A stretch of 64,000 bases of DNA, from contig RFSE01000011.1 in assembly GCA_009924135.1 (NCBI GenBank), forward strand, positions 921 through 64,920. The letters run 5' to 3'. The DNA comes from Pseudomonadota bacterium (lineage in GTDB: Bacteria; Verrucomicrobiota; Verrucomicrobiia; Limisphaerales; SXTU01). Position numbers and translations under genes: made by a program. Positions 14,343 through 58,413 of the stretch are shown in pieces. The notes beneath the pieces were generated by a model, which did not search any database, was not told where the DNA came from, and worked only from the letters and a program-made list of their open reading frames with translations. Positions within the stretch are counted from its first letter, which is position 1, and each line of letters starts with the position of its first letter.

Positions 14343-15842
14343 ATGAACAATCTCTTCTACATAATGCTCGTCGGGCTGCCCGTGTACGTGGTCATGGTCG
14401 TGCTCGGGCGGCAGTTACGCCGCCGGTGGAACCTGCGGATGGGAGCGCCATACCACTTCATCTGCATCGCAAATGCCGTCTTGGCGGCTTCCTACTTCAT
14501 CCTCGACGTGAGCGTGGCGGCGGAACGGGACAAGCACCGGGTGATCATGGCGGCCGCGTTCATGCTGGACTCCATCCTCCTGCTGACGCTCTTCAACCGG
14601 TTCTACTGGGAGGGGTATTTCGCCAAGAAGCGGAACATGGTTCCGCCCCGCTTCTTCACCCATGCCACGCGCCTCATCGGCATGACGGCGACGGCGGTGC
14701 TGATTCTTCAGTTTGTGTTCGATGTCCGTGTCCCCGGCTTGATCGCGAGCATCGGCGGCCTGGGTCTCGCCGTCGGTCTTGCGTTGCGGCCCGTCATCTC
14801 GAATCTCACCGCCGGCCTGACCATCCAGATGGGCAAGCCGCTCAAGCAAGGCGACTGGCTTTACATCGACAGCCGCCTGGCCGAGGTGATGGAACTCAAC
14901 TGGCGCACCACGCGGCTGCGCACGATTGACCACACCTACATCGAGATTCCGAACGTGGACCTCGTCAACGTCCACCTTCAGAACTACAGCTACCCGACGC
15001 CGCATCATGCCATGCGCGTCACGGTGCCGGTGGAATATGAGGCCCCGCCCAACAAGGTTCGTGCGATACTGCTCCGCTCGACCGAAGACGTCTCCGGGGT
15101 GTTGAAGGATCCGGCGCCCGAGGTTTACCTGAAGGAATTTGCGGACAGCACCATCATCTACGAAATCCGCGTCTGGATTGAAAAAGACTCCGAACACGAC
15201 CGTATCGCCGACGGCATCCGCACCGATGCCTGGTACGAGCTGCGCCGCGCAGGCCTCACGATGCCGTTCCCGCAGCGGGTAGTTCAATACCTGCGGCCCA
15301 AGGATGACTCCGACGCCCAGGCCCGGCATATCGCCGACATGCTCGGCCGCAACATGATATTCAGCGTCCTGAGTGACTCCCAGCGCCAGAAGCTGGTAGT
15401 CGGCGCACACAAGCAGCTTTTCGGCAAGGGCGAACGCATCTTCCGGCAAGGTGAGGAAGGCAACGCCCTCTACGTCGTCGCAGATGGCGAGGCGGATGTG
15501 TTTGTCGAGTCGGACGGCCACTCGACCCGCGTGAACGTGGTCCGCAGCGGCGAATGTCTCGGCGAGTTCTCCCTGCTGACCGGTGAAAAACTGAGCGCCT
15601 CCGTCCAGGCCACGAAGGATTGCGAAGTGGTGCTCATCCCCCGCGAACGCATGGCCGAGATCCTCCGCGAATCACCCGAACTCGTGGAACGGCTTAGTGA
15701 AATCCTCGCCCTCCGCCGCCTGGAAACCGAGGTCATTCTCGCGGAGTCCGAGACTCAGCGCAGCAAGAAAGTGGTGCCCAAGAGCCAGGAGGAATACGCC
15801 AACGACTTCCTCAAGAAGATGCAGGACTTCTTCTCTGTCTGA
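14343..15842 (+). CDS. MscS-family mechanosensitive channel fused to a C-terminal cyclic-nucleotide-binding domain
   Basis: MscS core (GGLGLAVGLALRPVISNLTAGLTIQMGKPLKQGDWLYID...) and a cNMP-binding domain (FGKGERIFRQGEEGNALYVVADGEADVF...GECLGEFSLLTGEKLSASV). Confidence 0.85.
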   Translation: MNNLFYIMLVGLPVYVVMVVLGRQLRRRWNLRMGAPYHFICIANAVLAASYFILDVSVAAERDKHRVIMAAAFMLDSILLLTLFNRFYWEGYFAKKRNMVPPRFFTHATRLIGMTATAVLILQFVFDVRVPGLIASIGGLGLAVGLALRPVISNLTAGLTIQMGKPLKQGDWLYIDSRLAEVMELNWRTTRLRTIDHTYIEIPNVDLVNVHLQNYSYPTPHHAMRVTVPVEYEAPPNKVRAILLRSTEDVSGVLKDPAPEVYLKEFADSTIIYEIRVWIEKDSEHDRIADGIRTDAWYELRRAGLTMPFPQRVVQYLRPKDDSDAQARHIADMLGRNMIFSVLSDSQRQKLVVGAHKQLFGKGERIFRQGEEGNALYVVADGEADVFVESDGHSTRVNVVRSGECLGEFSLLTGEKLSASVQATKDCEVVLIPRERMAEILRESPELVERLSEILALRRLETEVILAESETQRSKKVVPKSQEEYANDFLKKMQDFFSV

Positions 15843-17867: not shown

Positions 17868-19238
17868 ATGCAACCGGTCCTCGATTACCTCACCGCCAAC
17901 GAAGCACGCTTCCTGAGCGAACTCTGCGACTACCTCCGCTTCCCCAGCGTGTCCGCCCAGCCGCAGCACAAGCCCGATCTGGAACGCTGCGCCGCCTGGA
18001 TCGCAGACCACTGCCGCGCCATCGGCCTCGCAGTCGAGGTGTGTCCCACGCCTGGCAACCCGATCGTCCTGGCCCGCACGCCGCGCCGCGCCGGCACGCG
18101 CAAGCCGCACTATGTCGTCTATGGTCACTACGACGTCCAGCCGCCCGAGCCGCTCGAACTCTGGAAGTCGCCACCGTTCGAGCCGCGCATCGACGGCTGC
18201 AACCTCTTCGCCCGCGGTTCCTGCGATAACAAGGGCCAGCACTTCGCCCACTTGAAGGCGGTCGAAGCCTATTTGAAGACCGGCACCGAGCTGCCGTGCG
18301 ACCTCACATTCCTTATCGAGGGCGAAGAGGAAATCGGCTGCGAAAACCTCGCGCCCTTCCTGCGGGCCAGAAAGAAAGACCTGCGTTGTGAAGCCTTCGT
18401 CATTTCCGATAACGGCCTGCCCAGCAAGAAGCACCCCGCGCTCACCTACGCGCTGCGCGGCATTCTCGCCGTGGAAATCCGCCTCGACGGGCCGAACCGC
18501 GACCTGCACTCCGGCCTCTTTGGCGGCGCGGTGGACAATCCGGCCATGGCTCTCGCACAGATGCTCGCCAAACTCCGCGACAAAAACGGTCGCGTGACCG
18601 TCCCGGGCTTCTACGACGACGTCGCGCCGCTCTCCAAATACGAGCGGGCGATGCTGGCCAAACTGCCGGGCAACGAAACGACTTTCCGCAAACTGGTCGG
18701 GGTGCCGGAGCTGTTCGGCGAGCAGGGTTTCACCAGCACTGAACGCCGCACCGCGCGTCCGACCTGCGAGATCAACGGCCTCACCAGCGGTTATCAGGGC
18801 GAGGGCAGCAAGACCATTGTGCCCGCCTGGGCCCGGGCCAAGCTGACCTTCCGCCTCGTACCGGACATGGACCCGAAAAAACTTCAGAAGGCCATCGTAG
18901 CGCACCTCAAGTCGCTGTGTCCGCCCAGTTGCAAGCTGACGGTGGATGCCGGTCACGCGGGCGAACCCTATCTCGTCCAACCGGACAGTCCGCGTGCGCA
19001 GGCCGCGTTGCGGGCTCTCCGGGACGCCTTCGGCTGCGAACCGGTGCTCATGCGCGAGGGCGGCTCCATCCCCATCGTGAACGATTTCAAGCGCATCCTC
19101 GGTGTCGAGACGCTGCTCCTGGGCCTCTCGCTCCCCGATGACAACGCGCATTCGCCGAACGAGAAGTTCGACCTCGACTGCTTCCACGCCGGCATGCGCA
19201 TGAGCGCGCGGCTCTGGCCGGAACTGGCGAAAGTGTAA
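17868..19238 (+). CDS. M20 family metallopeptidase (dipeptidase / ArgE-DapE-CPG2 type)
   Basis: Trimmed to ATG 17868 (MQPVLDYLTANEARFLSEL). Motifs YGHYDVQP, ARGSCDNKGQ, FLIEGEEEIG, DDNAHSPNEKF. Confidence 0.85.
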   Translation: MQPVLDYLTANEARFLSELCDYLRFPSVSAQPQHKPDLERCAAWIADHCRAIGLAVEVCPTPGNPIVLARTPRRAGTRKPHYVVYGHYDVQPPEPLELWKSPPFEPRIDGCNLFARGSCDNKGQHFAHLKAVEAYLKTGTELPCDLTFLIEGEEEIGCENLAPFLRARKKDLRCEAFVISDNGLPSKKHPALTYALRGILAVEIRLDGPNRDLHSGLFGGAVDNPAMALAQMLAKLRDKNGRVTVPGFYDDVAPLSKYERAMLAKLPGNETTFRKLVGVPELFGEQGFTSTERRTARPTCEINGLTSGYQGEGSKTIVPAWARAKLTFRLVPDMDPKKLQKAIVAHLKSLCPPSCKLTVDAGHAGEPYLVQPDSPRAQAALRALRDAFGCEPVLMREGGSIPIVNDFKRILGVETLLLGLSLPDDNAHSPNEKFDLDCFHAGMRMSARLWPELAKV

Positions 19239-48380: not shown

Positions 48381-49502
48381 TCAGGGCGAAAAACCCGCCA
48401 CCTCGCGGTAAATCCGGGCGTAGTTTCGCACCATGGCCTCCATCGAGAAGTCGCGCATCACCCGCGCGCGGGCCCGCTGCCCCACAGCGGCCAGTTCCGC
48501 TGGATCAGCCAGCACGCGGTGTAGTTCTGCGGCCAGCAGCTCCACGGAATCCAGCGCAGCGAGAAACCCATCGCTCCCGCTCGTGATGACCTCCGCGTTG
48601 CCACAGGCGGTGTGGGCCAGGCACGGCACGCCACAGGCCATGGCTTCGAGCACGGCGTTCGACAAACCCTCGAAGATGGACGGCGCGGCGAGCAGGTCCA
48701 GCGCCTGATACCATGGGGTCGGGTTCGCCTGAAATCCGGCCAGATGGATGCGGTCGCGCACTGGACTGGCCAACGCGGCGGCGTGAATCTTTTCCTTCTC
48801 CGCCCCCTTGTCACCGACGATCACGAGCCGCGCACCGGGCAGTTGAGCCGCAACGCGGTTGAAGGCCTCAATGAGCAGCAGATGCTTCTTGTTCGGATCG
48901 AAGCGCCCGACGATGCCGATGTACTGGCCCTGCGCCGGCAAGCCAAGGTGCGTGCGAACTGCCGCCTTGTCCACCGGCTGAAACCGCCCCGTGTCCACGC
49001 CATTCAAAATGGCGGTGATCTTTTCCGCCGGGAACCCGTGCTCGATCAAGTAACGCCGCAAGGACTCGGAAACCGTATGGACCTTCCGGCAGGCGCGATA
49101 AAGCCGCTGCCGCTGGCGAAGCCGCGCCGGACCAGCCTGGTCGCCCTGAAAAACTCCGTGCTCGCCTTGCAAAACCGGCTTCCACATCCCCCAGCCGGAG
49201 CCGAGCGCGGCGTAGGTGAGCGGACCGAGGTTGTGCGGGTGCAGCAGGTGCGCTCCAATGCGCTGGGCGTGACGTGCGACGCCCAAGGCGGCCGGCACGG
49301 AAAAGCCGGGCGGTTTGTTGAGAACGACGACGTTCTCCGGGTGCGGCAGCCGTTCGACAAAGGCCCCGCCGCGTTCGAGACAGCAGACGTGGACCTCAAA
49401 TTCGTCCGGGGGCAGTCCGCGCGCCACGTTCACCACGCCATTTTCCATTCCGCCCGGTTCGAGCGAGAAGACGACGTGGAGGATTTTGAGCCGGCGCGAC
49501 AC
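48381..49502 (-). CDS. glycosyltransferase family 4
   Basis: GTG start. KILHVVFSLEPGGMENGV N-domain and a C-terminal GT1/GT4 fold with EGLSNAVLEAMACGVP. Confidence 0.85.
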   Translation of the reverse strand: MSRRLKILHVVFSLEPGGMENGVVNVARGLPPDEFEVHVCCLERGGAFVERLPHPENVVVLNKPPGFSVPAALGVARHAQRIGAHLLHPHNLGPLTYAALGSGWGMWKPVLQGEHGVFQGDQAGPARLRQRQRLYRACRKVHTVSESLRRYLIEHGFPAEKITAILNGVDTGRFQPVDKAAVRTHLGLPAQGQYIGIVGRFDPNKKHLLLIEAFNRVAAQLPGARLVIVGDKGAEKEKIHAAALASPVRDRIHLAGFQANPTPWYQALDLLAAPSIFEGLSNAVLEAMACGVPCLAHTACGNAEVITSGSDGFLAALDSVELLAAELHRVLADPAELAAVGQRARARVMRDFSMEAMVRNYARIYREVAGFSP

Positions 49503-49511
49503 GATGCCCCG

Positions 49512-50477
49512 TCAGGTCTTCACTTCGCCCCGGATGGCGTTAAGGGTGTAGCGAAGGAAGGATCGCAGGCGGAAGAGCGGTTTGTTGCCGTTCGCCGCCG
49601 GGTTCAGGAAAAACGGCCAGAGCAGCACGGAGATAAACAGATCACGGAACGCCCGCGCCGGCTGTTTGATGCCGTTGTAGATGAGCGAGGTCTGATAGCG
49701 CCAATAGCTGAAGACCTGGAGCCAGAAGCAAACGTCCGCCTTGGGCCAAACTTGGGCGGCGTACGATTTCTTGAGCACGGCCGCCATGTTGTTCTTCATG
49801 CGGTCGGCGTTGTTGCTCATGTTGTTGCCGTGCTTGCGGATTTGCACGAGCACCTTGCCCTGATGCCAGATGCGACGACGCGCGGCGATGCGGATCCACA
49901 TGTCGCGGTCCTCGGTGCTGCGCAGCGTCGTGTCAAAGCCGCCGCACTGGGTGAAGACTTCCTTGCGGGCGACGGCCCCCGTGGGCGAGAAGCGCGTACG
50001 CATGAGGATGTCCTTCACGGTGATTTCACGGGGCAGCACGGGTACGTGCACGGTGAAGGGCAGCGGTTTTTCGTCCACATCCACCAGCATGTCGTCGCAA
50101 GCCACCAGCGCATACTCCGTAGGCAACTTCGCAAAAGCGGCCATGCTGTCGCTCAGGTGGGTGGGCAGCAGCAAGTCATCGGCGTCAAGAAAGGCGACGA
50201 ACTCAAATTTTGCCTCGCGGATGCCGGTGTTGCGGGCGGCGGACAGGCCGGCGTTGGTTTGGTGAACGTAGCGGACGGGCGGACCGTAGTTCGCCATCAC
50301 CTCGCGGGTGTTGTCCTTGGAACCGTCATCAATCACCACGACTTCGAAGTTCGGATAGTCCTGTTTGAGACACGACTCGACAGCCGAAGGGAGGAAACGG
50401 GCGTAGTTGTAGGCGGGGATGACTACCGATACGCCGGGAGGCGTGGAAGCGGTGGCCGGATGCGGCGACTCACTCAT
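49512..50477 (-). CDS. glycosyltransferase family 2
   Basis: VSVVIPAYNYARFL, VIDDGSKDNT, FLDADD. Confidence 0.85.
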   Translation of the reverse strand: MSESPHPATASTPPGVSVVIPAYNYARFLPSAVESCLKQDYPNFEVVVIDDGSKDNTREVMANYGPPVRYVHQTNAGLSAARNTGIREAKFEFVAFLDADDLLLPTHLSDSMAAFAKLPTEYALVACDDMLVDVDEKPLPFTVHVPVLPREITVKDILMRTRFSPTGAVARKEVFTQCGGFDTTLRSTEDRDMWIRIAARRRIWHQGKVLVQIRKHGNNMSNNADRMKNNMAAVLKKSYAAQVWPKADVCFWLQVFSYWRYQTSLIYNGIKQPARAFRDLFISVLLWPFFLNPAANGNKPLFRLRSFLRYTLNAIRGEVKT

Positions 50478-50489
50478 GCGGGACAGGCT

Positions 50490-52874
50490 TCAACGGGGCT
50501 GGTTCTGATCCTTCGCTCGGGTGAGGGTCTGATACCGGTTGTAGTAATGGTTCGTGTAGTAGTAGTAGTGGAACCGGTTCATTGTCGCCATCAGGTCGAG
50601 GCGGTTGAGCACGAAGCCGTAGAAATTGGCGTGATTGTCGTTGAGGATGTCAATCGCCGTACGCACGGCACGGGTGGGCGTCTGGCCGGTCCAGATGACG
50701 AGGATGACACCGTCCATCGCCGGCTGCATGACGCTGGTCTCCGCCAGGCCCAGCACTGGCGTGGCATCCACGATGATGCGCTGGTAACGCTTGCGCAGCT
50801 TGTCGATGATGGCGATGAAATGCGGAGAACCCAGCTGTTCGATGTCGCCTTCCAACTGGTCGCCGCACGGCAGGATGTGCAGATTCTCCATCGTGGTCGG
50901 ACGGCAGGCATCTTCCACGTCGTATTTCTCGACGAGCACGTTGCTCAAACCCGGCGAGGAACGGCTGCCAAAGAGATGGTGCAGGATGCCGCGCCGGAGG
51001 TTGCCATCGATGATCAGGGTCTTCTCCCCCATGTGGGCAAAGGACATGGCGAGGTTTGAAGCCACCACCGTCTTGCCCTCTTTGGGTGAGGTGCTCGTGA
51101 CCATCACGACCTGCGGGAACTTCGAGGAAGCCGCACTGGACAGCAGATTGGTACGGATCACCCGGAAGTTTTCGATGAAATCGGGGTTGGCCACGCCATC
51201 GCTGAAGATGAGCGGATAGGCCTCGGCGATCTCGTCCTCGAAATCCGGCACCAGTCCGAGGCCACGCATGTTCGTGGTCTCTTCCATCTTCTCCATGTTC
51301 GTAACCGTCTGATCCATGAACTCGAGGAGGAAAGGTATGCCCAAGGAGAGGGCCAGGCCAATGCCGAGGGACATGAGGACGATTTTAAGCCGGTTGGGGG
51401 AAACGGGAATTTCGTCGCGGACGGTCGAAAAACCGATGAATTGCAGATCAACCCGCTGATGGTTGAGCGCCACCTCGAGCTTTTCCATCTCCGTTTTCAA
51501 CTCGGCAATTCGAGCCTGGTAGTCAATGCGGCTCTTGTCGGCCAGCATCCGTTCGCGGGTGTATTTCTCGTACTCCTTCTGCCGCTTTTCAATCGTGGGC
51601 AACTCCTCCTGCAAACGGCGGATTTCCTGCTGCAACCAACGGCCTTCAATTAAAAATTTCCCTCGCGAATCCATCGTCGCATCCTTCAGCTTGCGATCCA
51701 CGGCGGCAATCTGCGCGGCCAGCTCCTTCATCTTCTGGTGTCCCGGCCGGTAGGTGGCACTCAACTCCGTCCATTTGTTCTCCAGGGTGAACTTGGTCCG
51801 TTCCAGTTCACGCCAGTCGTCCATGCTGGCCCGCCCCCCTTGTTTAGGGAGCACCACCGTACCGTTGGAGGGCCGTTGAGCTTGCGGCAGGTTTTGTTTG
51901 GATTCCCGGTCAAATTCAACAAAGCCACCACCATCCCGGTAATCAATCGAGAAGTAGAAGTTCAGCCGTTCGAGTTCGGTGTATTCCGGGTGCTCGTTGA
52001 TCTTCCGATTGACATACTCCCAGCGTTCCAGCCGTTTCTTGTAATTTTCCAGCAACTTGGGAACGTCCCGTAATTGCTCCAGCTCATTTTTCAATTGTTC
52101 AGGGTTGACGCGCGCATTGTCCCGGTTCTCCTCCTCGATCTGCTTTTTCCAACGAGTCTCCCACTCCTCAATTTGTGGGATGTACTTGTTGGTCGTCGCC
52201 TCGTAGGCATACTCGGCTTTTTCGATGCGGTCCTTGAGGAACTCCTCCACCATGGCGGGAGGGAAGGTGCGCACCCACTCCGGTGAGTAGGCAAAGACCA
52301 TCGACTCAATGTTATGCTCTGAATCCCAGGTCGCCCGTGCTTGCTTCAGGGTGTCCTTCTTGGGCAGATCCACGGTCGTCATCGACCCAACCGGGCGGGT
52401 TTCGTCGTCAGGGGCAACCGGAGCCGGCTGACCGTTCTTGGCCCGTCTTTTCGCATCCTTGGCATCCTTGGCCTTGATTTTACGTTCCTTGTCGATCCGT
52501 TCCCGCAGCTCCCTCAGGGTCAACTTATCGGTGTCAAAATCAGCCACCAAGTTCGTCAATCCGCTCAACCGGACCACCGTCCGGGCCACGATATGCTCGG
52601 CCTCGAACTCCTTTAGAAACTTGTCGTCGGAAAAGCGGCGGGCATCGTCTCCCTTGAACGTGGTGTCCATGTCGGGCGTGGCGGACCCGATGGCCGTGTA
52701 GCGGATGCGGCTCTTGGAGGAATAAACCGGCCGGCTGAAGATGTAGAAGACCAGCCCTGCCGCCAGCGAGAGCGTCATGAGCAGGATGATCAGGCGCGCA
52801 TGTTTCGTGGCGATGGCGACATACATCACCACGTCCGTGAAATCTGCTTTGCGTTTTTGTGCGCCCGGAATCAT
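50490..52874 (-). CDS. polysaccharide co-polymerase / tyrosine autokinase (Wzc/GumC-like chain-length determinant)
   Basis: Has an N-terminal TM, a long coiled-coil periplasmic domain and a second TM. The kinase domain contains SPKEGKT (Walker A-like) and IIVDATPVLG. A C-terminal Tyr cluster reads HYYYYTNHYYNRY. Confidence 0.85.
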   Translation of the reverse strand: MIPGAQKRKADFTDVVMYVAIATKHARLIILLMTLSLAAGLVFYIFSRPVYSSKSRIRYTAIGSATPDMDTTFKGDDARRFSDDKFLKEFEAEHIVARTVVRLSGLTNLVADFDTDKLTLRELRERIDKERKIKAKDAKDAKRRAKNGQPAPVAPDDETRPVGSMTTVDLPKKDTLKQARATWDSEHNIESMVFAYSPEWVRTFPPAMVEEFLKDRIEKAEYAYEATTNKYIPQIEEWETRWKKQIEEENRDNARVNPEQLKNELEQLRDVPKLLENYKKRLERWEYVNRKINEHPEYTELERLNFYFSIDYRDGGGFVEFDRESKQNLPQAQRPSNGTVVLPKQGGRASMDDWRELERTKFTLENKWTELSATYRPGHQKMKELAAQIAAVDRKLKDATMDSRGKFLIEGRWLQQEIRRLQEELPTIEKRQKEYEKYTRERMLADKSRIDYQARIAELKTEMEKLEVALNHQRVDLQFIGFSTVRDEIPVSPNRLKIVLMSLGIGLALSLGIPFLLEFMDQTVTNMEKMEETTNMRGLGLVPDFEDEIAEAYPLIFSDGVANPDFIENFRVIRTNLLSSAASSKFPQVVMVTSTSPKEGKTVVASNLAMSFAHMGEKTLIIDGNLRRGILHHLFGSRSSPGLSNVLVEKYDVEDACRPTTMENLHILPCGDQLEGDIEQLGSPHFIAIIDKLRKRYQRIIVDATPVLGLAETSVMQPAMDGVILVIWTGQTPTRAVRTAIDILNDNHANFYGFVLNRLDLMATMNRFHYYYYTNHYYNRYQTLTRAKDQNQPR

Positions 52875-52903: not shown

Positions 52904-55162
52904 TCAGAAACTGAAGAAACTCTCAGGTACCACCACGATGTCCTTGCCCTGCAGGACAATGTCCGGAGCCAGGCCGCGCTGGATTTCCTTCACGTTGAGC
53001 GGCATCTGCATTTTCTCGCCGTTGCCCAGATCGCGGACCACGTAGCATTTCTTGAGGTTCGCGAAGCGGGAAAAACCACCGGCACGCAAGATGGCCGCAT
53101 AGGCAGTCAACGTCTCATCCTGGAACAAACGCAGGGTGCCGGGCTTCGTCACGTTGCCCGTGACGTAAACGACCGGTGCGAAGGCCGGGATCATGATGAT
53201 GTCCCCGGGGTTCAGCGCGATGTCCATCGGAGGGATGCTGCCGGACAGGATGGCGGCCACGTTGATTTCCTCGACCGCGCCCATGCCGTTGTCGATGCGC
53301 AGGAGTTTCGTACGCGTTAGATCGCCGGACGGGGTGATGCCGCCGGAACGAATGATCGTGGTGATTAGCGTGGGCGTGACGCCATCGGGGATCTTCAGCG
53401 GCCCCGGCGTAATAAACTCACCGGCGAGATAGATGATGGTGGCTTCCGTGGGCAACCGACCATCGTCGCGAGGATCCTGCCGCCGGTTCGGAGTGTCAGG
53501 TCCGAACTCCAACGTAACCGTGGCCTTCGTCAACTGGGTCTCTTCCAATTTCGCCTTGATGACCGCTTCAGCATCACCGATTTTCTTGCCGCCAACTACC
53601 ACGCGGCCCAAATTCTTGACGGTAATGGTGCCGTCCCGTTGCACCCGATAGATGGCATTATAGGAATCGTCTTCGGCGACGATGAGACGGACGGAGTCAC
53701 CAGGATTCACCGCGTCGGGATCGCCACCGGATACCGCGCCTTTCATCGCCGCAATCTTGCTCTCGGTCTCGGCCCCAATGCGATTAAGTTCCTCCGTGGC
53801 AACCTTGTAACGCGTGTCCAAGGCGGCGATTTCCTTCGTCCAGCGCTCCATGTCCTGCGGGTTCCCAACGCGACCAGCCGCATCCAGTTCACGACGGGCC
53901 AGGTTGGATTTTAGCTGCACCTCATCAATTTCACGGAGGATGATCTCGCGTTTTTCGGTAAGCTTGTCCAAATCCTTCTGGATGGCGGCGCTGTCCCCTC
54001 CGGAACGTCCCGTACGGAGGATGCCACCCTCGCCCACCATTGGTGCCGGCCGGGAACTGCCCACGGACAAAAACCGGGGCGGGCTTTTGCGATCCGTCGC
54101 CGCCGGTGCCGCCGGGTTCTGGTTGCCAGTGGACGCCATTGTCGCAGGCCGGTCCGGCATTGCGGGGGTCAAGCTGGCCACAACTCTGGTTTGGGTGAGC
54201 ATCTCTCGCGCGCGCCGCTCCTGCTCCGCACGATTCGCCTCGATTTCCTGCATCAGACGGGTGGAATCAGCATCCAGTTTGGTGATTTCGGTCCGGATGG
54301 TCTGCAGCCGGTCCCGGCTCTTGTTTTCCGCTTCCAGCCGCGCCAGTTCGGCTTTCGCGGCGTTGTAGCGAGCCTCCCAGTCGGCCGAGTCCTTGGAGAG
54401 GCGCTCGGCTTCGAGCTGCAATTCCGACTTGCGCCGCGTCATGTCATCCAGCGTGCGCCGCAGTTCCTCCGGGGCTCCAGCGAGGTTGACCGTCGGAGTA
54501 GTCGTGGAAATCCCGGTGGGCGGAATGGAGGCCGGAGCCATGACCGCCGCCGGCGGAGGCACGCTGCTCGCCCGCGAAGGCTCGAAAGCCGTTGTCGCGC
54601 TGCGCCGGGTGCTGAGGCTTTCCGTCATGCGGAACTCCTCGAGCTTGTTAAGCTCCGCCTGGGCGGCCCGCAGTTCAATCACGGCCGGCGGAAGATCGGC
54701 CGGCCGCGGTTCCTCGGCGGTCAGGGCCGGGACGGCCGGAATGGCAACCGGCGGGGGAGAAGCAACTACCGGAGCAGAAGGCGTGAAGGTGAGGCTTGCG
54801 GTCCCGGACGGGTTGAGGCCCGCAGCACTGTTGCTGGTCGCAAGTGTCATTGACCGGCTGCCGGCTTTGGGAGCGGTGAACGATTTGGCCGCAGCGGAAG
54901 GCGCTGGTTTCGGCGTGGGCGTGAACGGGGCGGCTGAAGGGGTTGAAACCGTCGTCGAATTTGCTCCGGACGGCGGCGTGAAAACTGAAGACGCGCTGGC
55001 CGGCGGCGACTCCGCACCGCCGGGCGGGGCGGAGAAAAAGGTCGAAACCGGCTCGCTGCCAGGCGATGGCGGCGCCGCCGGCTCGGCAGCGGCAGCCTGA
55101 CGGGTACCCGCCAGGAGCAGCAGCAGCAGGGCACACCCCACACGCACAAAGTGACTGGTCAT
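52904..55162 (-). CDS. polysaccharide export protein (Poly_export + SLBB, Wza-like) with a roughly 480-aa low-complexity/coiled-coil N-terminal extension
   Basis: Trimmed to ATG 55162 (MTSHFVRVGCALLLLLLAG). The C-terminal part has PGDSVRLIVAEDDSYNAIYRVQRDGTITVKNLGRVVVGG and SLBB-like repeats. The N-terminal half is Ala/Pro/Ser/Thr-rich followed by heptad-rich helices. Confidence 0.8.
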   Translation of the reverse strand: MTSHFVRVGCALLLLLLAGTRQAAAAEPAAPPSPGSEPVSTFFSAPPGGAESPPASASSVFTPPSGANSTTVSTPSAAPFTPTPKPAPSAAAKSFTAPKAGSRSMTLATSNSAAGLNPSGTASLTFTPSAPVVASPPPVAIPAVPALTAEEPRPADLPPAVIELRAAQAELNKLEEFRMTESLSTRRSATTAFEPSRASSVPPPAAVMAPASIPPTGISTTTPTVNLAGAPEELRRTLDDMTRRKSELQLEAERLSKDSADWEARYNAAKAELARLEAENKSRDRLQTIRTEITKLDADSTRLMQEIEANRAEQERRAREMLTQTRVVASLTPAMPDRPATMASTGNQNPAAPAATDRKSPPRFLSVGSSRPAPMVGEGGILRTGRSGGDSAAIQKDLDKLTEKREIILREIDEVQLKSNLARRELDAAGRVGNPQDMERWTKEIAALDTRYKVATEELNRIGAETESKIAAMKGAVSGGDPDAVNPGDSVRLIVAEDDSYNAIYRVQRDGTITVKNLGRVVVGGKKIGDAEAVIKAKLEETQLTKATVTLEFGPDTPNRRQDPRDDGRLPTEATIIYLAGEFITPGPLKIPDGVTPTLITTIIRSGGITPSGDLTRTKLLRIDNGMGAVEEINVAAILSGSIPPMDIALNPGDIIMIPAFAPVVYVTGNVTKPGTLRLFQDETLTAYAAILRAGGFSRFANLKKCYVVRDLGNGEKMQMPLNVKEIQRGLAPDIVLQGKDIVVVPESFFSF

Positions 55163-55277
55163 CGGTTTAGGCAGACTACGTTCTGCCGACATCAAATAGC
55201 TCAACCTCGTCTCAACTAGCGCCCTTTGATGCCACAGCACAAGTCCGGTATGCAAAAACATTCTTTGCGGTTGCAGG

Positions 55278-56943
55278 TTAAAATTTCTTGGTCAACGTGA
55301 TTGAAGCGACGTTTTCCACATAGCTATCCAGGAAGAAATTCGATTCGCGCCGCTCGTTTTGCAGCAGGATCGAGGTCTCAAACGTCGGCGTATGAGCAAA
55401 CACCAGTTCACACCGGATCGTATGCAGATCGAAGCGGATCGGGGGGGGTCCCCTCGCGGCCAACGCTGTGCGTCCACGCGTACCCGAACCGGGTGATAAA
55501 GCGGTCGAGTGCCCGATAGTTGAACCGGCCTTCCGTCCGGAATTGCTTGCCCCCGAAGGAGTTGTTCGGGTTATCAATCGGCTCCACGTTCTGTTCCTGC
55601 ACGGCCGCCTCGAGAATGATGTCCGGGCTGGCCTGGAGCTGGGCGTGATAGCCAACCAGCGTCACGATGGACCGATCCGGGTACGTGATGGTGCGCAGGT
55701 AATCCAGCTCGTGTTCGAAGCGTTCCCGGGGCCGGTTGATCAGCCGCACCGACCATACATAGCCCTCGCTGGATGAATCCCCCGCCAGGAAGTATCCCAT
55801 GTCGGCGCTGAGATCGAGATAGGGCGTGATCGGGCCGATGAAGCCTCCCCGGGTCGCCGCATCATAACCAGACCGGCCTTCCTGATGCCGTGCCGTGTAG
55901 CTGAAAAACGGTTTGAACCGCAGGTTTTCACGTTCCGAACGCAACTCGGCGACGAACGAATCCGCGCTGCTTGGCTGCCCGAGACTGTCGCGGGCCTGCT
56001 AGATGTTCTCGTGCGTGTAGCCAGCGGTGAAGCGCGTGACGGTCGGCAGGACCGTGCTCGCATTGGCACCAATGACGTTCCGAAAGGATGGAGCCGAACG
56101 GAAGCGTCGGTCCGTCGCCCCCTGCGCCTGCGTATCCCGGTACGAATACCGACCGGCCGTGTCCTGCAGGTCGTTGGCCTGACGATCCAACAAGTCAAAC
56201 GCCCGCCCGGTTCCGAACCCTCCACTCTGCACGGTGAAATCCTCCAACACCTGGAAATCCAGGTGATTCATGGGGATATCGTAGGTAAACTGGGTCTGAA
56301 ACAAGGGCGCGAGGCTGAAGGAATAGTCCGCCAGCGGATCGCGGAAGCCGACTTCTCCCTTCAACGGCAGCCAGATTGCCGTGCCGGCCGCCGAGAGCCG
56401 CATCGCCTCATTGACCTGGTAAATGACGCCAGTCTGCAACCGCACAATGGCAATCTCATCGGTCTTCCGACCAACCTGGACGAGGTTGATGTTATCGCTG
56501 ACCAAGGCGGAGGTGCTGAGGGAGAACACCTGCAGATAGAAATTTCCCAGCTTGAACTGGGCCTCCTCCGGACGGCTGGCAAAACCGAAAAGCGGCAGCC
56601 CGGCCGTGGGCCCGAGCGGGGCGGCGACGCGAAACTGCCCCTCGCCGTAACCGATCTTGGGCACCCGGATGATGCCATCCTGAAAGGTGCGGAAAAAGCC
56701 CTGCTGTGCCGCATCCGCATCCCGCACCAGGCTCGGCTCCGTCGTACCCGCCCCGCCCACTTCGGCGTCCGCCTTTTCGCTGAGTGTCGTGGTAGTGAGG
56801 CCCTCGCGGAGGCCGCCGGGCCGGAGGGTGGCGCTGGCCGCACCGGTGGCCTGACTGGATACCTGCGCTGAGGCCGAGGCCACGCAGGCCAGCGAGAGCG
56901 CGCCGCCCAAGAGGAACTTCGAGCGACAGCTCAGGGAACGCAT
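55278..56943 (-). pseudogene. outer-membrane beta-barrel protein of the EPS locus, disrupted by an in-frame TAG and a homopolymer frameshift
   Basis: Three ORF-track pieces form one gene. 55999..56946 carries a signal peptide (MRSLSCRSKFLLGGALSLACVASASAQ). 55408..55944 is in the same frame, separated only by TAG at 56001..55999. 55278..55655 supplies the C-terminus, which ends in ...ITLTKKF (terminal Phe). Removing one C from the C8 run (G8 on plus, 55441-55448) joins the frames: ...GREGTPPIRFDLHTIRCELVF... Confidence 0.75.
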
Positions 56944-56961
56944 CACCGGGACGGAAGGGGG

Positions 56962-57234
56962 TTATCGTTGCGCCCGCTTGGGCTTGCGCCAGAAGGAAAG
57001 TGAACCGGTGGCGGCATTTTTCCAGGCGATCGCCAGATATGGAAAGATGGCGAACGGCCCGAACATGATGACCAGCATCGTCCACAGCGAACGCCGCTTC
57101 TTGTCGAAAGGCTGCTGGTTGATGCTCCAAATGACACAGCCCAGCGTAATCAGATAGAGCAGCACAGCGATGCTGATCGTCTGGCTGTTAATCTTCACGC
57201 TTTCCAAGCTGAAGCGTTGCAGAATGTCTTTCAT
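56962..57234 (-). CDS. small two-TM membrane protein, PLDc_N-like
   Basis: Trimmed to ATG 57234 (MKDILQRFSL...). SIAVLLYLITLGCVIWSI and LWTMLVIMFGPFAIFPYLAIAWK resemble PLD-nuclease N-terminal-domain proteins. Recognised from memory. Confidence 0.5.
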   Translation of the reverse strand: MKDILQRFSLESVKINSQTISIAVLLYLITLGCVIWSINQQPFDKKRRSLWTMLVIMFGPFAIFPYLAIAWKNAATGSLSFWRKPKRAQR

Positions 57235-57336
57235 GGTCCGTTTCGCTTGCGTCCCGACAACCCGGCACTGAGAACAACGGTCATTGTTACTGCGGCCAGC
57301 TCGCCGCCTCAATCAAAAACCCACGGGCTAGGGCCA

Positions 57337-58413
57337 TTAGGCCAGATCCACCCACTGCCGGGTCTCGGCTGACTTTAACGCCGCGTCCGTCACATCCTGC
57401 ATCCGCGCGCCATCGTGGAACGTCACGCTGCACGGACGCTGTTCGCGGATGGCGTTGATAAATTCGACCGCCTGGTCATAGCGGAAGCTCACCAGCGGAT
57501 CGCCCACGCCGGGATCGCGCGGCGAACCGGGCCAGGTGTAAAACTCACGCGGAATGGGCAGGGCCTTGAGACCGGGGCCGCCGACCTTGCCGAACTGCAA
57601 CTCATTCCAGGTGCCCGTGGTGAAGCTAAAGCTGGCCTCGCTGCCGTTCAACTCCACGCGATCCGGGCTGCGCCAGCTTTCGTTGGTACCGCTGGCGAGT
57701 TTCGAGCTTTCCAGCACGCCGCTGGCACCGTTTTGGAATTCCGCGAGAATGGCCACCCAATCATCCGTGTCATTGGGAGCTCCACCGCGCACAGGGGTGA
57801 GGTTTTTTAGGTTCGCCACCAGCCGGGCCATTGGCCCGATCAGATGATGCGCAAAATCAATGCGGTGCGAGAGCATGTCGCCAATCTCGCCCGTGCCCGC
57901 GAGCTTCTTCTGCTGCCGCCAGCCGACATTGCGGGTGCCCCAGTCCTGGAGACGGCAGGAACGGTAGTGATACGGGCGACCCAGCTCGCCCTGATCTACG
58001 AGATGTTTCAGGTAACGCATGGCCGGCACGAAGCGGTAGGTGAATGCCGTCATGTGGCGCACGTTGGCCTGCTCGGCGGCATCAGCCATCGCGTGGGCAT
58101 CCGTAGCATTCAGCGCGAGCGGCTTCTCGGAGAGGACGTGTTTGCCGGACCGCGCAGCGGCGATGGCCACGGGCGGGTGAAACGCGTTCGGCGTGGCGAT
58201 GATGAGCGCGTGCACATCGTCGCGTTTGACGATGTCTTCCCAGTTGGTGGTGACGACGGGCGCACCGGTTTGCTGACGGGCAGTTTCCAAGGTGGCGGGA
58301 TTGGCGTCGCACAACGCGTGGACCTTCACGTCCTTGCACAGGGCGAGGCCGGGAAGATGGTTCTGCAACGTAATGCCGCCGGTGCCGATGATGGCGATGT
58401 TCAATGTGCTCAT
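57337..58413 (-). CDS. Gfo/Idh/MocA family NAD(P)-dependent oxidoreductase
   Basis: Trimmed to ATG 58413 (MSTLNIAIIGTGGITLQNHLPGL). Rossmann GxGxxG motif and EKPLALN. Confidence 0.85.
   Translation of the reverse strand: MSTLNIAIIGTGGITLQNHLPGLALCKDVKVHALCDANPATLETARQQTGAPVVTTNWEDIVKRDDVHALIIATPNAFHPPVAIAAARSGKHVLSEKPLALNATDAHAMADAAEQANVRHMTAFTYRFVPAMRYLKHLVDQGELGRPYHYRSCRLQDWGTRNVGWRQQKKLAGTGEIGDMLSHRIDFAHHLIGPMARLVANLKNLTPVRGGAPNDTDDWVAILAEFQNGASGVLESSKLASGTNESWRSPDRVELNGSEASFSFTTGTWNELQFGKVGGPGLKALPIPREFYTWPGSPRDPGVGDPLVSFRYDQAVEFINAIREQRPCSVTFHDGARMQDVTDAALKSAETRQWVDLA

Follow-up and report, generated by a model that had tools for sequence, protein, structure and literature searches.

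Do three consecutive open reading frames (ORFs) in front of a set of polysaccharide export genes encode three separate proteins, one protein whose production is switched by a homopolymer tract, or the remains of a gene that no longer works? This question is raised by the minus strand of the window, the whole 64-kb stretch of DNA analysed here, which was taken from contig RFSE01000011.1 of a metagenome-assembled genome (MAG) of the Verrucomicrobiota. The MAG is labelled G000 (with the window on its contig C3), and its sister genome is labelled G010. The three ORFs lie head to tail at 55999..56946 (315 amino acids, aa), 55408..55944 (178 aa) and 55278..55655 (125 aa). A preliminary description of the stretch had taken them for one gene encoding an outer-membrane (OM) barrel, interrupted by an in-frame TAG and by a frameshift in a run of eight C, and had proposed the run as a slipped-strand switch. 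Our analysis supports the single gene and not the switch: with a probability of roughly 0.7, the ORFs are the pieces of a pseudogene, a real gene that was inactivated recently in a natural freshwater population of Verrucomicrobiota, and an ordinary one rather than an on/off device.

The first two ORFs share a frame, and the sole separator between them is a TAG codon at 56001..55999, in the context GYTHENI*QARDSLG, at the position given in the preliminary description. The third ORF becomes contiguous, as had been expected, when one C is dropped from the C8 run: the second piece (...GREGTPP) then runs into the frame IRFDLHTIRCELVFAHT...VASITLTKKF*, for a total of 555 codons ending in ...ITLTKKF. 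On the plus strand this run reads as G8 at 55441-55448, and it is the sole run of at least eight in the window. The likely start is the ATG at 56943, which yields the 314 aa reported by gene callers and corrects the GTG at 56946. The signal peptide at one end and the barrel-type C-terminus at the other can both be seen in the translation, and the last residue of the reconstructed protein is Phe. The broken gene and its parts are as follows:

55278..56946, minus strand: the whole broken gene for a predicted OM beta-barrel of ~554 aa, as judged from its natural stop TAA (55280..55278), the 552-554-aa ORFs of relatives and the modelled fold of the orthologue P0003
56866..56943, minus strand: Sec signal peptide MRSLSCRSKFLLGGALSLACVASASA, with predicted cleavage after ASA (…LACVASASA/Q), seen in the translation; the N-terminus is conserved among orthologues
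55999..56001, minus strand: first lesion, an in-frame TAG at codon 315, which is TGG (Trp) in relatives (DNA alignment, 11 orthologues)
55441..55448, minus strand: second lesion, the C8 run, one base over the homologous stretch in every aligned relative and shifting the frame after about residue 501
55408..55410, minus strand: premature TGA met past the frameshift, after the tail DPLRSAYDPV* (ORF list and translation)
55281..55439, minus strand: out-of-frame remnant with the last three predicted strands (model strands 502-516, 521-534 and 541-553), a weak TIGR03016-like motif and the C-terminal signal ...VENVASITLTKKF

In relatives the gene is a single, intact unit. A six-frame search of 40 related genomes with the reconstructed 555-residue query found one uninterrupted frame over residues 1-555 in 15 of the 19 same-genus genomes and in 4 genomes from other families of the order; the stop and the frame change were found in the window's genome only. 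The single open frame of ~554 aa in these 19 related genomes upholds the reading of the three ORFs as one gene. Three genuinely separate genes, the outcome against which the preliminary description had proposed a comparison with orthologues, were ruled out, since the orthologues have one open frame. The sequence databases also hold 15 full-length proteins of 552-554 aa with 65-79% identity to the barrel.

Both lesions were compared with intact sequence in an alignment. The TAG site is TGG in all 11 orthologues of the DNA alignment, and the corresponding Trp (W315) is invariant across 27 family members, down to 27% identity. At the second site the C8 run exceeds its counterpart in each of the 11 by exactly one base; none of the 11 has a long C run there, the sequence being interrupted, and the closest relative, G010 (89% aa identity), has GGGGA-CGCCCCCG in place of the window's GGGGACCCCCCCCG. 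By this alignment, the C tract is therefore new in the window's lineage. The barrel gene is single-copy in G000 (6.68 Mb in 490 contigs, 90% complete, 3.6% contamination), and a family profile search of this genome found no paralogue able to substitute, only very distant barrels at its other outer-membrane polysaccharide export (OPX) loci. Intact orthologues, disabling lesions at conserved positions and a single copy of the gene are what a pseudogene would present.

The nature of the intact protein was approached through an AlphaFold model of a 79%-identical orthologue, P0003. The model (mean predicted local distance difference test score, pLDDT, 60.6; 80-92 over residues 285-554) is a large antiparallel barrel that follows a low-confidence N-terminal region of ~125 residues. 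It has ~20 or more long strands over 554 aa, an approximate count, the N-terminal half being of low confidence. A Foldseek search of this model against the PDB gave 298 matches with E<=0.001, and all 50 of those listed are OM barrels or complexes containing them: MtrB and TonB-dependent receptors (BtuB/Cir/PirA) at the top, together with Occ porins, MOMP and the secretin PgaA (4y25), which ranks 12th with TM-scores of 0.28/0.48. The TM-scores are low (0.3-0.48), so that the fold class is clear and no specific family is indicated. A Pfam search with the read-through protein matched no family, DUF6029 included, and a sequence profile search of the PDB gave only insignificant matches to MOMP porins. 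Together with the signal peptide and the C-terminal Phe, the modelled fold and its structural matches support the earlier identification, and the gene is predicted to encode a secreted integral OM beta-barrel.

Mapped onto the model, the first lesion marks the end of strand 303-316, and the 13 strands that follow are lost, while the second falls where strand 502-516 begins and takes away the last three strands along with the C-terminal Phe, a signal that is needed for OM insertion in OM protein biogenesis. The first would have arisen by a G-to-A transition that turned the invariant Trp codon 315 into TAG, costing more than half of the barrel. For the second, a synonymous ACG-to-ACC change would first have produced a C7 run, and a +1 slip would then have lengthened it to C8, probably in this order, so that the last three strands and the Phe signal are no longer in frame. 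The 314-residue N-terminal fragment, having neither the closing strands nor the insertion signal, would form no barrel, and a restart of translation after the TAG would give a product without a signal peptide.

Whether cells or only assemblies carry these lesions can be judged from other records of the same lineage. Besides the MAG scaffold, the Logan contig SRR3568955_110760 also encodes the first two pieces, P0019 (314 aa) and P0035 (178 aa); this contig, which is on record for 2 samples, comes from a per-run assembly by another assembler. Over its 4653 bp it matches the window at 100% identity, free of mismatches and gaps, TAG and C8 included. Two further records are available as protein sequences. 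P0041, from an NCBI MAG (locus tag EB141), is a complete 314-aa product ending ...GYTHENI, whose last ~45 residues carry the diagnostic residues of the window's lineage. P0045, from a 949-bp ENA contig, is one residue off the second piece (Y to F) and has the frameshift tail ...TPPDPLRSAYDPV. Since G000 has only one copy of the barrel gene, P0041 and P0045 derive from other assemblies, and the TAG is found in three assemblies in all (the window, Logan and the EB141 MAG). The 90%-identity cluster contains no intact barrel of the window's lineage, its 554-aa members P0036 and P0044 being of the G010 type. Two pattern scans of the JGI metagenomes found neither allele of the lineage: the C-run pattern gave no match, and the TAG/TGG pattern gave one contig, from a 75%-identical relative with TGG.

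The quality of the surrounding assembly points in the same direction. When 111 long ORFs orthologous with G010 (268 kb of G010) were compared, 10 were flagged as broken; most of these flags turned out on inspection to be start-codon or antisense-ORF artefacts, and the barrel alone has a mid-gene nonsense codon. The reciprocal comparison flagged 4 of 109 ORFs in G010, and across the 36 kb of synteny that surround the locus no real gene other than the barrel is broken. The G000 assembly thus does not appear, on this comparison, to be generally error-ridden. Two lesions in one 1.67-kb gene with intact neighbours form the pattern of a true pseudogene, in which a second lesion is free to follow the first, whereas random errors are not expected to cluster. 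Assembly error is on these sequence comparisons an unlikely source of the lesions.

The strongest form of that objection is that both lesions are artefacts of assembly or consensus, or a chimeric consensus of co-occurring strains, and that the cells carry an intact gene. The genome is indeed a MAG with the fragmentation and contamination given above, and public assemblies do contain products that mix the window's lineage with the G010 type (P0041, P0044). Stop-creating substitutions, however, rarely come from assemblers, the TAG recurs in three assemblies, both lesions occur together on a single Logan contig of 4653 bp without a mismatch, and neither the 90% cluster nor the JGI metagenomes yielded an intact sequence of the lineage, all of which makes this explanation very improbable. 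The two mixed products are themselves of some interest: P0041 joins a G010-type N-terminus to a window-type end with the stop, and P0044 is of the G010 type with a window-type AWTHSV patch. Such mosaics may reflect either recombination between co-occurring sister populations or chimeric assembly.

A narrower objection accepts the TAG as real and puts the extra C down to a miscounted homopolymer, in sequencing or in the consensus; the single-lesion gene would still be a pseudogene. C8/G8 runs are the most error-prone sites, and a second +1 change occurs in a near-identical 'GAC8' context in another gene of the MAG. On the other hand, the C8 was also obtained by a different assembler, and P0045, a variant haplotype with one amino acid different from another ENA assembly, has the same frameshifted tail. 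Most other G/C runs of at least 8 in G000, moreover, lie inside long open frames with high GC content at third codon positions (GC3), and just one other breaks a frame, although these genome-wide counts are rough, as the thresholds of the first scan missed the 55441-55448 site itself. We consider this explanation rather unlikely. The earlier remark that the C8 is a classic sequencing-error site holds insofar as homopolymers are error-prone; an error in this instance is unlikely, the Logan assembly from another assembler being identical over both lesions.

The second gene with a +1 change was looked at in its own right. At G000:C463:17804-17811 the frame changes at a lineage-specific 'GAC8' run, and with one C fewer, stretches of 995 and 238 codons become a single gene for an Ig-like/RCC1-repeat surface protein of >1233 aa, in which the restored STPPPGYQWYKDG matches the protein's own repeat motif. 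No interruption, and no C run at the site, is seen in its orthologues in G010, G005, G007 and G008. The comparison of 111 ORFs with their G010 orthologues gave further candidate frame changes at G000:C358 ~14655-14674, C468 ~14869-14871 and C336 ~18860-18923, none of them at a homopolymer; the C336 junction holds a terminator-like hairpin and may be a plain gene boundary.

Several points weigh against a genuine, recently inactivated gene and account for the remaining doubt. A systematic miscall of the C8, or minority alleles that are in frame, would be compatible with assembly-level evidence. SRR3568955 is possibly the MAG's own source run, in which case the Logan contig is independent in assembler only and not in data. 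The +1 change at the 'GAC8' run of contig C463 would fit a recurrent artefact in which C7 is read as C8. The pore role proposed below for the intact barrel is drawn from context and fold only, and the Wzp/EpsX porins, with 18 strands, are smaller than this barrel, which has no Pfam match. Finally, substitution counts polarised by outgroups give no clear sign of relaxed constraint: the window branch carries 38 non-synonymous and 119 synonymous changes, against 27 and 110 on the sister branch. Unique replacements at otherwise invariant columns number 8 on the window branch and 2 on the sister branch, which suggests at most a slight relaxation. With relaxation near-absent, inactivation would be recent relative to the split from G010 (~82% DNA identity).

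The C tract has also to be considered as a working phase-variation switch that toggles the exporter by slipped-strand mispairing. Homopolymer-tract contingency (phase-variable) loci are found in Neisseria, Haemophilus, Campylobacter and Helicobacter. The window resembles them in having a poly-C tract of eight, whose length sets the frame, within a gene related to the cell surface, a classic design, and the only other frame-breaking C8 found in G000 also lies in a surface-type gene, that of the giant Ig-like/RCC1 repeat protein. It differs from them in four respects. The TAG sits 550 nt upstream of the tract and truncates the protein whatever the tract length, a non-reversible nonsense lesion that blocks any ON state reached by a tract change alone. 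The tract itself is placed near the 3' end, within the final tenth of the gene. It is absent from all 11 aligned relatives and so is not maintained. The available sequences of the window's lineage show no variation in tract length, the window, the Logan contig and P0045 all being in the same out-of-frame state. G/C runs of at least 8 are rare in G000 (42 in 6.68 Mb), and most lie within long open frames. The proposal of a classic slipped-strand switch thus finds no support here, and we regard a working switch as highly unlikely.

Expression through recoding, that is, read-through or suppression of the TAG combined with programmed frameshifting at the C run, has next to no chance of being correct. 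TAG followed by C is a weak termination context, the barrel-gene TAG is followed by C, and slippery C runs can allow frameshifting. Against this, TAG is an ordinary stop in G000, ending 309 of 1680 long ORFs, and recoding of TAG was rejected on this stop-codon usage; no relative needs recoding at either site; and it would be far-fetched to assume that one gene had acquired two unrelated forms of recoding, neither of which occurs in its orthologues.

If the gene is a pseudogene, as we prefer, its double knock-out might not be neutral decay: selection might have removed one surface polysaccharide from the whole population, for example as an escape from a phage or grazer that recognises it, with newly formed C runs acting as mutational hot spots that preferentially disable surface genes in this lineage. 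This remains a doubtful extension of the argument. Only two frame-breaking C8 runs were found in G000, one in the exopolysaccharide (EPS) pore gene discussed here and the other in the gene for the giant Ig-like surface protein.

A profile search of 1.84 billion representatives returned 346 clusters (50% identity) with E <= 0.001, mostly of 540-600 aa, and the barrel appears from this search to belong to a small, unannotated family without a Pfam model. Its nearest named relatives are NCBIfam models. P0003 matches TIGR03016, a PEP-CTERM system-associated OM protein, with E 5e-07 and 29.1 bits over its C-terminal 89 residues only, and 23 of the 27 family members give such sub-threshold matches (best E 2.6e-10), two of them touching EpsL (TIGR03014). 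All scores are under the cut-off of 90.85 bits, those of about 29 bits far under it, and the barrel does not qualify as a TIGR03016 protein by score. What the barrel has in common with TIGR03016 and EpsL is a C-terminal three-strand motif (YQ..R.SN......Y..N...L.L...F), and the neighbouring OPX protein matches TIGR03027, a pepcterm_export family, below threshold. Unlike the setting of TIGR03016, however, the window's contig C3 has no exosortase (PF09721); the two in G000 are on C58 and C102.

The genes around the barrel were annotated with Pfam, which confirmed that it heads a block of Wza-like, Wzc-like, GT2 and GT4 genes. The order, all on the minus strand, is a GFO/IDH/MocA oxidoreductase, a 90-aa protein with two transmembrane (TM) segments, the barrel, the OPX protein, the Wzc-like protein and the two glycosyltransferases. 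The neighbours relevant to export are as follows:

56962..57234, minus strand: conserved 90-aa two-TM protein, directly upstream of the barrel gene, with 65-87% identity and the same position in 11 of 11 relatives; the gene is called in ENA and Logan records
52904..55261, minus strand: Wza-like OPX protein, 785 aa, intact in comparison with G010, with Pfam Poly_export (518-585) and SLBB (697-783) and sub-threshold NCBIfam matches to TIGR03027/EpsE/EpsY
50490..52874, minus strand: Wzc-like co-polymerase with a P-loop domain (AAA_31), 794 aa, intact (Pfam and comparison with G010)
49512-50477, minus strand: GT2 glycosyltransferase, intact (Pfam and comparison with G010)
48381-49502, minus strand: GT4 glycosyltransferase, intact (Pfam and comparison with G010)

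The order of the small TM protein, the barrel and the OPX protein is conserved in the relatives examined, and the 90-aa protein may be a further component of the export module. The OPX protein ends two residues past its SLBB domain and lacks the OM-spanning C-terminal domain (the Wza_C helix). Its first ~480 residues are rich in Ala, Pro and Ser and then form a predicted coiled coil (weak SMC-like matches); only the last ~270 carry Poly_export and SLBB.

OPX proteins of this Class 3 architecture (Poly_export and SLBB only) pair with beta-barrel porins (PMC9603273, PMC9601211). In Myxococcus xanthus, export across the OM by Class 3 OPX proteins depends on the neighbouring porin EpsX/WzpX (PMC9601211, PMC9603273), and composite OPX/beta-barrel translocons have been described for EpsY/WzaX with EpsX/WzpX, ExoA/ExoB, WzaB/WzpB and Vibrio VpsN/VpsM (Schwabe et al. 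2022 PMC9601211; Saidi et al. 2022 PMC9603273). The locus in the window resembles the M. xanthus translocon in that a barrel gene stands beside a gene for an OPX protein without an OM-spanning helix (Class 3 / D1D2 type), an adjacency that is conserved, in a locus with a Wzc-like co-polymerase and glycosyltransferases. It differs in the size of both partners. The window-type barrel has ~554 aa and >20 predicted strands, compared with 18 strands and ~400-450 aa for Wzp/EpsX, and the 16-18 strands with PgaA/AlgE as closest structural homologues that mark these porins were not recovered. The OPX partner has 785 aa, with a low-complexity/coiled-coil N-terminal half of ~480 aa, compared with <=280 aa in M. 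xanthus; as the median length of Class-3-like OPX proteins is 256 aa (PMC9603273), the window's protein is unusual. Unlike its M. xanthus counterpart, the barrel gene is dead in G000.

By analogy with these translocons, and from its position and modelled fold, the intact barrel is most likely the OM pore partner of the adjacent OPX protein, in a composite translocon for one Wzc-dependent polysaccharide. In the relatives, a periplasmic OPX ring would dock onto the barrel, and the polymer made by the Wzc-linked machinery would leave through it. In the window's lineage, export of this one polymer across the OM has probably been lost, or proceeds through a non-cognate barrel, and three other modules remain; premature termination might also lower the expression of the downstream genes by polarity. 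The suggestion that the state of the barrel gene could gate polysaccharide export is plausible, by analogy, for this one locus, beside which G000 has three more barrel/OPX modules, all intact.

In annotation, a single pseudogene entry should replace the three 'hypothetical proteins'. The find, most likely a pseudogene of an ordinary kind and recent origin, is not surprising in itself; the uncharacterised barrel family to which it belongs fits an export scheme already known. The locus does point to an unannotated family of ~550-aa OM barrels beside Class-3-like OPX exporters in this Verrucomicrobial order, so that the OPX/beta-barrel mode of export, described only recently, may also make use of larger barrels. 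As a loss-of-function allele that arose naturally in wild lake bacteria with three parallel export modules still in place, the broken copy would also be a small example of surface-polysaccharide turnover.

G000 has four Poly_export loci in all, on contigs C224, C3, C58 and C2. The three outside the window (Wza-like, 214-244-aa open frames) are at C224 ~24.3-25.1 kb, C58 ~35.7-37.2 kb and C2 ~41.9-44.8 kb. On C224 and C58 an intact ORF of 421-435 aa with a weak TIGR03016-type C-terminus adjoins the OPX gene, and on C2 a 430-aa barrel ORF lies ~2.4 kb from it. As judged from these loci, the barrel-plus-OPX module appears to be a recurring design in G000, of which the broken copy is the largest version. 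Across 52904-58413 of the window, divergence from G010:C265 follows a gradient, with protein identities of 98% for the GFO oxidoreductase, 89% for the barrel and ~71-75% for the OPX protein, and the export proteins thus appear to evolve much faster than their neighbours.

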